From an uncultured Candidatus Poseidoniales archaeon (GTDB lineage Archaea; Thermoplasmatota; Poseidoniia; Poseidoniales; Poseidoniaceae), in assembly GCA_963997415.1 (NCBI GenBank), contig CAXEMN010000009.1, positions 243 to 64,242 of the forward strand: a stretch of DNA of 64,000 bases, written 5' to 3'. The notes under the pieces were generated by a model. That model was not told the DNA's origin, did no database searches, and was given only the letters and a program-made list of their open reading frames with translations. A program made the position numbers and the translations under genes. Below, piece after piece: positions 19,954 to 23,807 of this stretch (the stretch's first letter is position 1; each line of letters opens with the position of its first letter).

Positions 19954-20814
19954 TCAAATTCCAAAATTCTTCAAGAGCATAAGCCATGTTGGCTTTCGTA
20001 CATCACCTTCTTCGTTGACAAACGAACGTACAGCCATTGAGAGCAAATCAATCACCACGACAACGATGAAAATCAAGATGAGCAGGGCCAGGACTTTGTC
20101 ATACTGCAAGAATTTCAGGTACGTGCTGATGTAGTATCCAATACCACCTGCACCTACAATACCGATCACGGTTCCATGCCTGACGTTGTATTCGAACATG
20201 AACATCAATTGGCTCAGAAGATGGTTACTGTTTTCTGGAATGACGATGTTGAGGAGAATGCTGGAACGGCCAAGCCCCATTGCTCGACCTGCTTCAAGAG
20301 GATCGTTCGGCATGCCTTCAAAGACTTCATATTGCAATTTCCCTAGATAGCCAATAGTGTAGAAGGTCATGGCTAAAACGCCAGATAGAGGCCCAAAGCC
20401 GATGACGATCACGAACAATATGGCCCAAATAAGACTGGGTAAACTGCGCACAGCCGAAAGGAACACCCGTGCCGGAAGAGCAATCGAAAGAGGCATAAGA
20501 TTTCGCGCAGCAAGTGATGAAAAGAAGATAGCCCCAATGAATCCTAGAATGGTGGAGACGAATGCGATTTTCAGAGTTTCCATCATGCCGAGGTAGCCGA
20601 CCGAACAAAAGAACTCAATGTCTTGCTCACACACGGGATAGGATCGAGCCTCTAGTACACTCCAATTTGGTGGCCACATGCTTTCAGAAAAAAAGACGCT
20701 TAGGTTTGATAAGCCCCCTTCCAAACGACCCCAATCTCCTTCGACAAGACCGTCAAGCGTACGCCAGGCCAAGAAAAAGAGAAGAACCACGATACCATAT
20801 AATCGGTATTTCAT
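19954..20814 (-). CDS. ABC importer permease, PhnE-like
   Basis: Permease with EAGRAMGLGRSSILLNIVIPE (EAA-loop region) and the PhnE-typical VIGIVGAGGIGYY block. The ATG at 20814 forms an ATGA overlap with the ATPase stop. Confidence 0.8.
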   Translation of the reverse strand: MKYRLYGIVVLLFFLAWRTLDGLVEGDWGRLEGGLSNLSVFFSESMWPPNWSVLEARSYPVCEQDIEFFCSVGYLGMMETLKIAFVSTILGFIGAIFFSSLAARNLMPLSIALPARVFLSAVRSLPSLIWAILFVIVIGFGPLSGVLAMTFYTIGYLGKLQYEVFEGMPNDPLEAGRAMGLGRSSILLNIVIPENSNHLLSQLMFMFEYNVRHGTVIGIVGAGGIGYYISTYLKFLQYDKVLALLILIFIVVVVIDLLSMAVRSFVNEEGDVRKPTWLMLLKNFGI

Positions 20815-21497
20815 TCCTCTTCCCCCTTTAGCGAGTGAATCTCCCACTCTTCGATGGACATGTCATAGAAGCACTTGTCCTTGATTTCCCACACACGGGT
20901 TGCAAATTCCTTGGCATTGTCTTCGTGATGTTCAACCATAATCACAGCAGTTCCTTTGCTTACAAGCCCCTGTACTGCGCCCAAAACGATATCCACATTA
21001 TGCTGATCCAATTCTCCAAGGAATTCATCTGCAAGCATTAATTGAGGGCGTTGAGCCAAGGTCCTCGCTGTCGCCACACGCCGTTGTTGCCCGCCGGACA
21101 ATCGACGCACAGGTTCTGAGGCCTTTTCCTCAATCCCAAGCGTACGAATCGCATCATATGTGCGTTCTTTCCGCTCTTTGAACATCGTTCTTGACCAAGG
21201 AATGTTCAGCCTCGCTCCTAGAGATACATTGTGAGCGACCGTAGCGTGTCGAACCAGTCCAAGCCGCTGTGGGATGTACCCCAAACCCCCTCGGCGTTCA
21301 ACATGAAGATCAAAATCACCTTCCAACGGCCGAACGAGCCCCGCGATGGTACGAACAAGTGTGGTTTTACCAATCCCAGAAGATCCAAGGATGGCAATGA
21401 TTTCTCCCGGCCTGACCTCCAGCGTAATCGGTTTACAGAGAGGCTCATTGTAGCCAATCACAAGACCATTCAGGGATAAGATGGCGTCGTCACTCAT
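20811..21497 (-). CDS. ABC importer ATP-binding protein, PhnC-like
   Basis: Walker A GSSGIGKTT, signature LSGGQQRRVATARTL, Walker B LMLADEFLGELD, H-loop VMVEHH. Confidence 0.88.
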   Translation of the reverse strand: MSDDAILSLNGLVIGYNEPLCKPITLEVRPGEIIAILGSSGIGKTTLVRTIAGLVRPLEGDFDLHVERRGGLGYIPQRLGLVRHATVAHNVSLGARLNIPWSRTMFKERKERTYDAIRTLGIEEKASEPVRRLSGGQQRRVATARTLAQRPQLMLADEFLGELDQHNVDIVLGAVQGLVSKGTAVIMVEHHEDNAKEFATRVWEIKDKCFYDMSIEEWEIHSLKGEEE

Positions 21498-21516
21498 AGC
21501 ATCCCCTCTGTTGACC

Positions 21517-21594
21517 CTACAAGCGGGTCTTTTTCAAACGGTTGGAGCCCAACTCAACAAAACCGTTGAGCTTCATGTTTGATTTTTGCGTCAT
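21517..21594 (-). CDS. possible 25-codon small ORF between binding-protein and ATPase genes
   Basis: Minus-strand AAGGAGG-CGCTC-ATG (canonical SD with 5-nt spacer), then MTQKSNMKLNGFVELGSNRLKKTRL and TAG. No other support. Confidence 0.25.
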   Translation of the reverse strand: MTQKSNMKLNGFVELGSNRLKKTRL

Positions 21595-21618
21595 GAGCGC
21601 CTCCTTAGATGTCGACGA

Positions 21619-21653
21619 AGCAATCCACCGTTGGGTGAGGCGACTGGATTGCT
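21619..21653 (-). terminator. intercistronic stem-loop downstream of the binding-protein gene
   Basis: AGCAATCCA (21619-21627) and TGGATTGCT (21645-21653) form a 9-bp inverted repeat with a 17-nt loop, about 40 nt after the stop at 21693-21695. Function as attenuator or mRNA stabiliser is inferred. Confidence 0.3.
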
Positions 21654-21692
21654 CCGCCGACGGTTTTCATTCAAGGAAGACACCTTGCGAAT

Positions 21693-23807
21693 TCACTCCG
21701 TAATTTCATACTTCGAGTCGAAGTAGGAAGAAATACCAGGGATTGCACTGATGAGGCTACTGTAGCTGCCAAGGTGTTCTTGGGAGTTCACCTCGACCAA
21801 TCCACCTGTGTTCAACACGTTGGACAAGATTTGATCGCCGCATACCTCCACAGGGGACGTGGAGTCGACTTGCTGAGTGACCATAGAGTAGCAGCCAGTG
21901 TAATTCTGACCCTGGATCGGGTAATCTTCAACGTACATTTCATCGTTCAACGCTAACAAAGCATTGAGAATTGCGGTTCTTGTTTGGACATCAAGCGTCG
22001 CTGGATTGTACATCACAGGATGAGAAGGTGCAGAACCGTACGAGGGGAGAAGAATGTATTCAGATTCTGGCAAACACCAATCGGCGTTGTCACTGGAATC
22101 TTCATTCCCACAGTAGGAAGCAATTGTTGAATCCTTGGCAAAGGCCACATCACCGACACCTTCGGTCAAGCACTTTACTGCGCCAGAGTAGGAGTAGTAG
22201 GGGGTGCCAGAGTCAGGAATGCTTGCGTTCTCGTTGAAGAATGAGGTGATGGTATCTCGAAGTGATTCAATATCATCTTGTGGCCCAACAACAGGAGCAT
22301 AACCTTGAGAGATCAAGTGACCCATCGGAAGAAGCATTCCGGCGGATTTGAGCCATCCTGTGTGGCAGGAGGTTTTTCCTTCCATCATGGCGAAAGGATC
22401 GGTTGATGAATCGTCATCGAGGTAGGCATTGGCAATATCAGAACCATTGAGCACAACAGCGTGAGCATCGTAGTGTGTTCGTCCATCCGACTTCAAATCG
22501 GCAGCCATGGCTGCGAGTCCGTACTCTTTCCAGCCGACCCAAGCAGCACCGCCGTCCATGAACGCAATATCTGCATTACCAAAGCGAAGAGCTTCGATGA
22601 TGGCGCCTTCTGAAGCAACCGGATACAGCGTCACAGTGACCCCGGTTTGTTCTGCAATAAAATCAGCCAAAACTTGAGGGTTTTCGGCTGGATTGACGTA
22701 ATCATCTTTCATTTCGAAAGCAATTCTTATGTTCGAAATTGTTGGCTCAACTGAATCGTTGATCGAGAATTTTGTGTCATAATATGCGGAAATACCTGGG
22801 ACATCTTCAATCAAATTGCCATATGAAGAGAGATGATCTGCTGCAGTTGTTGCGGAAATAGCAGGTGTGTTCAACACATTTTCAAGGATGGATTGGCCGT
22901 CTTCTGTGTTTTTCATGTCCACAAGCACCTCTTGGACAAGCGTCATTGTGCTTGCATCCGAGGTTGCTGGATTGTACATCACAGGGTGAGACGGTGCGTT
23001 TCCGTAGGAAGGAAGTAAGACATAGTCGGATTCTGGCAAGCACCATGCTTCATTTGTCGTTGGATCTTCATTACCGCAATAAGATGCAATCGTGGAGTCC
23101 TTTGCAAACGCTACGTCGCCAACGCCCTCAGAGAGGCACTTCACTGCGCCGCTGTACGAGTAGTATGGAGTTCCCGAGTCGGGGATGCTTGCGTCCTCAT
23201 TGAAGAAGTTGGTAATGGTTGAGCGCAATGATTCAACATCATTTGCATCACCGATTACGTTCGCGTATCCATTGCCGATGAGGAAACCCATTGGAAGGAG
23301 CATCCCCGCTGATTTGAGCCACCCTGTGTGGCATGAGGTTGTTCCAGCCATCAAGGAAAATGGGTCTGTTGCTGGATCATCATCAAGGTGGGCTTGGGCA
23401 ATTTCTGAATCTTTGAGCACAACGGCATGTGCGCTGTAGTATGTTCTTCCATCGGATTTTTGATCGGCTGCAAGAGCATCGAGGCCATACTGTTGCCATC
23501 CAACCCACGCTGCCCCGCCATCCATGAAGGCAATGTCAGCGTTTCCAAAACGAAGAGCTTGCAGTGCGGCACCTTCTGAATCGATTGGATAAAGTGAAAC
23601 GTCCATGTTGAGAGCTTCACCGAGATAGTCAGCAAAACGTTGAGGGTTTTCGTCAACATTGGTATAATCGTCTTTGAGGCTAAAGGCAACCACGAGCGAT
23701 TCAAGATTCGAATCGTTCGAGGTGTCCTCACCACCGAGGCACCCTGCGAGGGCGGTCGTTCCAATCAATAGGCTCATTATCAGGCATTTTGCAATTTTGT
23801 TGTTCAT
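21693..23807 (-). CDS. bilobal transferrin-family substrate-binding lipoprotein
   Basis: Signal peptide with lipobox ([10 protein letters not shown]). Two homologous ~320-aa halves. Each half has [9 protein letters not shown], RT(Y/H)Y.[60 protein letters not shown] and [10 protein letters not shown], matching serotransferrin blocks as recalled. Confidence 0.85.
   Translation of the reverse strand: [704 protein letters not shown]
21696..22736 (-). repeat. C-lobe of intragenic tandem duplication (aa ~358-704)
   Basis: See N-lobe. Carries an extra ~40-aa C-terminal extension (Cys-containing [23 protein letters not shown]). Confidence 0.8.
22758..23702 (-). repeat. N-lobe of intragenic tandem duplication (aa ~36-350)
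   Basis: Aligns block-for-block with aa ~358-704 of the same ORF. Similarity is also visible at DNA level, e.g. around 23180-23230 versus 22215-22265. Confidence 0.8.

Follow-up and report, generated by a model that had tools for sequence, protein, structure and literature searches.

A transferrin-family lipoprotein encoded with a PhnC/PhnE-type ABC transporter in a marine Poseidoniaceae archaeon, and its probable role in iron uptake

Transferrins are best known from eukaryotes, where serotransferrin, lactoferrin, ovotransferrin, melanotransferrin and the multi-lobed proteins of Ichthyosporea and green algae occur as secreted or glycosylphosphatidylinositol-anchored glycoproteins and act via receptor-mediated endocytosis. 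In the N-lobe of human transferrin, Fe(III) is held by Asp63, Tyr95, Tyr188 and His249, the anion site is formed by Thr120 and Arg124 with the N-terminal end of helix 5 (SAG), and Cys118 and Cys194 form a disulfide. Transferrins and algal phytotransferrins are said to have been proposed, by McQuaid et al. 2018, to descend from PhnD-type binding proteins. Here, a stretch of 64 kb (64,000 nucleotides, referred to as the window) from an uncultured Candidatus Poseidoniales archaeon (contig CAXEMN010000009.1) was analysed. It encodes a two-lobed lipoprotein of the transferrin family in one operon with an ATPase and a permease of an ATP-binding cassette (ABC) transporter of the PhnC/PhnE type, and this operon probably serves as an iron-repressed importer of Fe(III) with high affinity.

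With the eukaryotic transferrins, the archaeal protein shares the match to PF00405, the lobe fold, the Asp/Tyr/Tyr/His ligands, the tandem arrangement of lobes, the SCHTG...(K/R)SAG anion motif and the C118-C194 cysteine pair. In contrast to them, it is a lipobox lipoprotein, its cysteine content is 1.5% as compared to 3-5%, and it is encoded together with an ABC ATPase and permease behind an operator of DtxR type. Its lobes were duplicated independently of those of the eukaryotic proteins, and the number of lobes varies between one and three. The importer PhnCDE (E. coli PhnD, PDB 3P7I family; PtxB; AioX) has in common with the archaeal system the superfamily, the fold, the Phosphonate-bd match, the PhnE-type permease, the PhnC-like ATPase and the logic of the operon. 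However, the archaeal binding protein lies 200 bits under the PhnD equivalog cutoff, three of the four ligand columns hold other residues in E. coli PhnD, which has no cysteine pair, and the archaeal operator is of metal type and not of Pho type, with no carbon-phosphorus (C-P) lyase context found.

The principle proposed for the archaeal operon is also that of FbpABC and FutABC, in which Fe(III) is held by Tyr, His and a carboxylate together with a synergistic anion and is passed to an iron-repressed ABC importer. FbpA (the 'bacterial transferrin') and FutA belong to other families (SBP_bac_1/6/8/11) and are analogues of transferrin, whereas the archaeal protein is a true homologue, and the permease family differs as well. 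The phytotransferrin ISIP2a of diatoms has been described as a functional analogue of transferrin (PMC7972479). Like the archaeal protein, for which binding is predicted, it is an Fe(III)-binding protein anchored in the membrane of marine plankton, with a proposed dependence on carbonate. By its description, ISIP2a is assigned to the FEA-domain group and is endocytosed, whereas the archaeal protein belongs to PF00405 and is associated with an ABC transporter.

The lipoprotein had been pointed out in an earlier note on this DNA, the observations of which were confirmed, whereas its interpretation is partly supported. The open reading frame (ORF) of 704 amino acids (aa) is present, and its signal peptide ends in the proposed lipobox (...TALAGC). 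Its two halves are homologous with an identity of 60% (BLASTP, E=2e-156), and all sequence blocks quoted as transferrin-like were found and were aligned by HMMER to lactoferrin or transferrin in the way that had been suggested (for example ADIAFMDGG). The whole protein matches the Pfam family Transferrin (PF00405) with 145.1 bits at a cutoff of 20.3 (E=3.8e-42), and Phosphonate-bd with 142 bits. When the lobes were scored separately, the anticipated match to Transferrin was significant for both (lobe 1, 73.7 bits; lobe 2, 78.0 bits), but Phosphonate-bd reached about the same level (79.3 and 68.2 bits, respectively). Thus, the family lies between both and is not purely a transferrin family. The binding protein failed the NCBIfam models for PhnD (TIGR03431, 62.4 bits at a cutoff of 261.1) and for its subfamily (TIGR01098, 89.3 bits at a cutoff of 112.05). 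No Pfam match at E<=1 to the families SBP_bac_1/6/8/11 was obtained in the binding protein, nor one to a Fea1-type domain.

Searches against the PDB pointed to the transferrins. With the single sequence, phmmer gave lactoferrins at about 1e-29, and all 60 matches listed were transferrin-family chains, led by lactoferrins, melanotransferrin and serotransferrin. A profile built from 45 archaeal lobes likewise had only members of the transferrin family among its best 60 matches (melanotransferrin at 4e-59). The same profile assigned 216 bits to ichthyosporean transferrin lobes, 167-200 bits to a cysteine-free 'PhnD-like' clade and 32 bits to E. coli PhnD, which lobe 1 alone found by BLASTP with E=0.009. 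An AlphaFold model of lobe 1 (predicted local distance difference test score, pLDDT, 95.8) matched apo-transferrins in Foldseek at E ~1e-15 with template modelling scores of 0.6-0.67, and PtxB (phosphite) and AioX (arsenite) matched equally well. The fold alone is indecisive and marks the protein only as one of the class II binding proteins in the PhnD/transferrin group. The protein is a true transferrin homologue and probably one of the closest prokaryotic relatives of the eukaryotic transferrins; its nearest eukaryotic relatives are multi-lobed proteins of the Ichthyosporea (Chromosphaera, Creolimax, Amoebidium and Abeoforma) and of the green alga Bryopsis. The transferrin domain has already been flagged by automated annotation. 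No study interpreting this flag was found in the literature searched, where whole-word searches pairing transferrin with Poseidoniales or Thermoplasmatota gave nothing relevant.

The ligand columns were aligned by HMMER and MAFFT. In lobe 1, the predicted Fe ligands are D96, Y124, Y218 and H274, with a putative anion site at T161, K165 and S166-A167-G168; the counterparts in lobe 2 are D418, Y446, Y540 and H596, with T483 and K487. The earlier claim that the ligand set and the anion-binding Thr are kept in both lobes was borne out, as the D/Y/T/K/Y/H columns of both lobes are invariant in 21 bilobal homologues. Among 45 homologues from Thermoplasmatota, sharing 39-66% identity with lobe 1 of the window protein, the Asp/Tyr/Tyr/His tetrad, the anion Thr, the Lys with the Ser-Ala-Gly helix start and two cysteines are invariant. 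This cysteine pair is the equivalent of C118-C194, which forms a disulfide in human transferrin. Lobe 1 contains the cysteine pairs C159/C224 and C244/C256, and lobe 2 carries an additional insert of 31 aa with two conserved cysteines (C639 and C656). In the K-12 record of E. coli PhnD, such a cysteine pair is missing, and the positions aligned with Asp, the second Tyr and His of transferrin are taken by Gly, His and Asp, respectively. Since three of the four ligand columns differ, the tetrad is not a general feature of PhnD.

The anion-binding Arg of transferrin was correctly reported to be replaced by Lys, but this replacement does not set the protein apart. Lys is the usual residue at the Arg124 position in ichthyosporean and algal lobes and is found in many animal-type lobes, including a vertebrate-type protein that can be aligned with ovotransferrin over its entire length. 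As Lys is common in eukaryotic transferrin lobes, the exchange is no departure from the transferrins. Binding of Fe(III) and carbonate by the window protein is predicted from these sequence features. In divergent archaeal paralogues with one or two lobes (P0122, P0123, P0127, P0130, P0132, P0181 and P0193), several of the ligand residues are missing, in many cases from the second lobe, and the cysteine pair is retained; this suggests that iron binding is gone in these lobes or that another ligand is bound.

Putative regulatory sequences upstream of the operon point to control by a metal. Two TTAGG-N4-CCTAA palindromes flank the TATA-like sequence TATATGTA on the 5' side of the start codon of the binding-protein gene. 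In 893 kb of related loci, this exact pattern was observed 138 times, with about one copy expected, and 131 of these copies lie within 400 nucleotides (nt) 5' of the coding start of lobe 1 of a binding protein, across the marine groups IIa, IIb and III (MGIIa, MGIIb and MGIII). The extended consensus reads T-TTAGG-G-N3-CCTAA-A, and the four bases in the centre show free variation, in keeping with an operator to which a dimer binds. The pattern coincides with positions 1-14 of the published DtxR consensus TTAGGTTAGCCTAACCTAA (PMC7762939).

In nine loci, mostly of MGIII type, a divergent gene adjoins the operon, and the intergenic region usually contains three operator sites. The product of this gene has the domains Fe_dep_repress, Fe_dep_repr_C and FeoA and keeps the residues aligned with Met10, Cys102, Glu105 and His106 of DtxR. 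In the DtxR/MntR family, the pair Met10/Cys102 marks sites of Fe type rather than Mn type. In another Thermoplasmatota lineage with a one-lobed orthologue (locus L085), a DtxR-like gene is followed by the genes for the binding protein, the ATPase and the permease, and another one-lobed orthologue of Thermoplasmatota retains an operator copy with one mismatch. The DtxR-type operator and the adjoining DtxR-family repressors in relatives argue for metal control and not phosphorus control. The role in iron uptake that the earlier note had proposed is strengthened by the conserved operator and by the adjoining DtxR-family genes in MGIII and in this other lineage. In some MGIIb loci, a further TTAGG-N4-CCTAA site lies in the spacer before the ATPase gene.

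As had been described, a PhnC-like ATPase and a PhnE-like permease are encoded downstream of the binding protein on the same strand and are ATGA-coupled to each other (Table 1). The ATPase matches Pfam ABC_tran with 99 bits and is 32% identical to E. coli PhnC; its best NCBIfam model is PhnC (TIGR02315), with 126.6 bits under a cutoff of 266.1. The permease matches BPD_transp_1 and passes the PhnE model TIGR01097 narrowly, with 221.5 bits at a cutoff of 216.7. Its start is the ATG at 20814, which overlaps the stop of the ATPase gene and agrees with the 286 aa annotated on public contigs; the GTG at 20847, given as the start in the ORF list, is not the real one. Tight coupling is lacking between the genes of the binding protein and the ATPase, which are 195 nt apart. 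For this spacer, a long RNA hairpin is predicted (-70.1 kcal/mol, z = -3.3), which may act as a transcript stabiliser or as a partial terminator. In one-lobed orthologues, the same two genes are 6-9 nt apart. The order of binding protein, ATPase and permease is kept in all MGIIa, MGIIb, MGIII and other Thermoplasmatota loci with enough flank. The earlier reading of the lipoprotein as a transferrin-family protein with a complete ligand set and PhnC/PhnE-type transporter genes beside it is supported, and the operon is conserved. Scans for sigma-70 promoters and intrinsic terminators, which are not relevant to an archaeon, showed no enrichment.

Table 1. Position of the operon and its elements in the window (nt, nucleotides; aa, amino acids).
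Feature	Position	Strand	Basis
Transferrin-family lipoprotein gene (substrate-binding protein, 704 aa)	21693..23807	-	ORF; Pfam; PDB matches
Signal peptide and lipobox (aa 1-23), lobe 1 (aa 35-351), lobe 2 (aa 357-704)	within the 704-aa protein		
Lobe 1 (aa 35-351)	22755..23705	-	AlphaFold model, invariant ligand columns, Pfam
Lobe 2 (aa 357-704)	21696..22739	-	60% identity to lobe 1, invariant columns, Pfam
Structured spacer (195 nt) between binding-protein gene and ATPase gene	21498..21692	-	RNA fold
ABC ATPase, PhnC-like (228 aa)	20811..21497	-	Pfam ABC_tran, NCBIfam TIGR02315
ABC permease, PhnE-type (286 aa)	19954..20814	-	TIGR01097, BPD_transp_1
Distal operator TTAGGGTGGCCTAA (coding strand), 63 to 50 nt 5' of the ATG	23857..23870	.	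Exact pattern match
Proximal operator TTAGGGCGGCCTAA (coding strand), 29 to 16 nt 5' of the ATG	23823..23836	.	Exact pattern match
TATATGTA, candidate archaeal TATA box between both operators	23847..23854	-	Read from the sequence; function inferred

In the proposed mechanism, a lipid anchor would hold the two-lobed binding protein at the outer surface of the membrane. As in the mechanism of transferrin, each of its lobes would close over one Fe(III), coordinated by Asp, two Tyr and His, along with a synergistic (bi)carbonate for which Thr, Lys and the beginning of the KSAG helix would form the site. The loaded protein would then dock on a homodimer of the PhnE-type permease, assumed to be a homodimer because only one permease gene is present, and the PhnC-like ATPase would power the transport of iron inward. 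When iron is sufficient, a repressor of DtxR/IdeR type with Fe(II) as corepressor would bind both operators and block transcription. The repressor of the window operon is presumably encoded outside the window.

We consider it likely, on the evidence of sequence and gene context, that the operon is an iron-repressed Fe(III) importer in which a true transferrin homologue with a lipid anchor is the binding protein for an ABC transporter of the PhnC/PhnE type. A number of observations weigh against this, and several of them favour its main rival, a PhnCDE-like importer of phosphonate, phosphite or another phosphorus oxyanion whose likeness to transferrin would come from shared ancestry only. Each lobe scores as high on Phosphonate-bd as on Transferrin, and the 142 bits of the whole protein fit a phosphorus importer. 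PtxB and AioX are among the best fold matches and tie with the transferrins, and a full-length model predicted with 21 close homologues was poor (pLDDT 40, predicted template modelling score 0.26) and was left unused. The permease clears the PhnE equivalog cutoff, though narrowly, and PhnC is the best model for the ATPase; known Fe(III) ABC importers (FbpB, FutB) have permeases of other families, and iron would have to pass through one of the PhnE type. In addition, a cysteine-free clade annotated as phosphonate binders, including a protein of Nitrosopumilus, keeps D/Y/T/Y/H, and the tetrad alone is therefore no proof of iron binding. This clade, comprising P0257, P0258 and P0266 (the Nitrosopumilus protein, annotated as phosphonate binding protein) with Phosphonate-bd scores of 113-171 bits, may represent additional iron binders or a link in evolution. 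Phosphonate transport is also counted as a core trait of MGII in the literature (PMC6336850), and the name given to close homologues by the Joint Genome Institute (JGI) refers to phosphate/phosphonate. Against a phosphorus importer stand the failure of the binding protein in TIGR03431 (62 vs 261 bits) and TIGR01098 (89 vs 112 bits), the distance to E. coli PhnD in the archaeal profile and in BLASTP, the invariant transferrin tetrad in place of the PhnD ligand columns, and the DtxR-type operator with adjoining DtxR-family repressors in relatives. Moreover, C-P lyase genes and PhnF, looked for as homologues of PhnF/G/H/I/J, were not found in the window and 83 loci (~957 kb), a search that did not cover whole genomes or phnX, phnW and ptxD. 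This rival is weakened by these results, and we regard it as unlikely.

If the lobes bind a metal as transferrins do, the metal might be Mn or a hard trivalent or tetravalent cation, taken up under the control of a Mn-responsive regulator of DtxR/MntR type. Some members of the DtxR family sense Mn, and the regulator encoded next to the one-lobed orthologue of L085 carries Glu where DtxR has Met10, two points that also weigh against an iron importer; PDB entries show transferrins with Ti, Cr, Yb and Ce. A further point against an iron importer is that no DtxR gene was found within the window with DtxR, MntR and Fur probes, which were approximate sequences; the regulator of this genome presumably lies outside the 64 kb. 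On the other side, the regulators of MGIII keep the Fe-type pair Met10/Cys102, Asp-Tyr-Tyr-His with carbonate is the classic hard-acid site for Fe(III), and a three-lobed paralogue adjoins an iron-chelate transporter with FecCD, so that another metal appears quite improbable. Even with iron as the ligand, the protein could store, buffer or scavenge iron outside the cell, with the adjoining ABC genes importing another substrate. The structured spacer of 195 nt between the genes of the binding protein and the ATPase, the separate operator before the ATPase gene in some MGIIb loci and the existence of orphan paralogues with no adjoining ABC genes (such as P0300) would agree with this. The operon contains, however, no second binding-protein gene, the gene order is kept from MGIIa to the other Thermoplasmatota, and both genes lie close together in one-lobed orthologues; a role apart from the transporter is highly improbable. 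An importer of Fe(III) remains the explanation that we prefer.

The archaeal origin suspected in the earlier note was confirmed, as the gene stems from the Poseidoniaceae (MGIIa). Close homologues from Poseidoniales with identities of 74-95% are named 'PhnD/SsuA/transferrin family substrate-binding protein' by NCBI and 'ABC-type phosphate/phosphonate transport system substrate-binding protein' by JGI. The exact protein was found on 22 metagenome contigs from the open ocean, including samples of BATS (Bermuda Atlantic Time-series Study) and Tara. A scan with one genome per species yielded 419 matching stretches, and the best 80 of these all belong to MGIIa, MGIIb or MGIII, except for two contigs in bacterial bins. 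On these two (L068, labelled Yoonia sp., and L080, labelled Salinimicrobium sp.), which were filed in bacterial metagenome-assembled genomes and are probably mis-binned, the archaeal operon is accompanied by its MGII neighbours. A single lobe was matched by 358 out of 1.84 billion cluster representatives. Other Thermoplasmatota have one-lobed lipoproteins of the same family.

The bilobal form had been interpreted as a possible intermediate in the evolution of transferrins, and this part of the earlier note was not upheld. In a neighbour-joining tree of 97 lobes, which is rough and was rooted by assumption on the cysteine-free PhnD-like clade, all lobes of eukaryotes group together (92% bootstrap) within a paraphyletic grade of archaeal lobes, with weak support (61%) for their archaeal sister group. 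Both lobes of the window protein fall among the MGII-type lobes and apart from all eukaryotic lobes. Among the relatives, the number of lobes ranges from one to three, the three-lobed form (P0026 at locus L089) having 1156 aa. The identity of 60% between the lobes, their grouping in the tree and the existence of one- and three-lobed relatives indicate an independent, lineage-specific duplication. The bilobal state is thus a separate development and not a stage towards animal transferrins.

Varying lobe numbers were observed at the loci L006, L012, L013, L020, L044 and L082, in addition to P0026. In one-lobed forms, lobe 1 seems to be joined to the C-terminal 12 aa of lobe 2, or the head of lobe 1 to the body of lobe 2. 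Such variation could result from recombination between lobes or, less likely, from an assembly artefact; a collapse of both lobes during assembly is an unlikely source of the one-lobed forms because the DNA of the two lobes is at most about 74% identical across 280 nt. At L089 (5786-10488), the gene of P0026 is followed by a gene for a 793-aa protein and then by Peripla_BP_2, FecCD and ABC_tran genes, which correspond to an ABC transporter of iron-chelate type. The one-lobed paralogue P0300 (locus L087) is an orphan with the full ligand set and no adjoining ABC genes, and its gene lies between GDPD and GSDH genes.

Further genes of the window were noted. A 71-aa ORF (19700-19915, + strand) converges on the permease gene, and its position is kept in many MGIIa and MGIIb loci with 52-100% identity; it was considered as a local regulator and dropped, as no supporting Pfam match was found. 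Upstream of the operon, a membrane protein of 299 aa (23909-24808) has no family match, is conserved in MGIIa alone and was not counted in the system. A 395-aa protein (28864-30051, + strand) contains three zinc fingers of RanBP2 type (PF00641, 85.8 bits), a domain typical of eukaryotes, with long Arg/Gly/Asp-rich repeats in between. The ORF at 38648-45325 (- strand) encodes 2225 aa, has an FG-GAP-like repeat as its sole family match and is probably a large surface protein.

To our knowledge, the acquisition of iron by MGII and MGIII archaea is essentially undescribed, and both groups are among the most abundant planktonic archaea. A reassignment of the operon from phosphonate to iron would alter inferences on nutrient cycles drawn from metagenomes and metatranscriptomes, and the operon would become a candidate marker of iron stress in archaea. 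The family supplies a long-sought, true prokaryotic homologue of transferrin that is still associated with an ABC transporter and makes the proposed descent of transferrins from PhnD-like proteins directly testable. It is conceivable, though rather doubtful at present, that the lipoprotein transferrins of Thermoplasmatota represent the surviving prokaryotic stock of all eukaryotic transferrins, which would have arisen by an ancient transfer from a marine archaeon to a eukaryote, and that they still act in the ancestral way, binding iron for an ABC importer. If this is true, one of the most abundant archaeal groups in the ocean would use the carbonate-dependent mechanism of the transferrins to import unchelated Fe(III), and the 'core phosphonate transporter' of MGII would have been mis-assigned. 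Should binding require carbonate, as in transferrin and phytotransferrin, the iron uptake of these archaea would be sensitive to the carbonate chemistry of seawater and would thereby be linked to ocean acidification.

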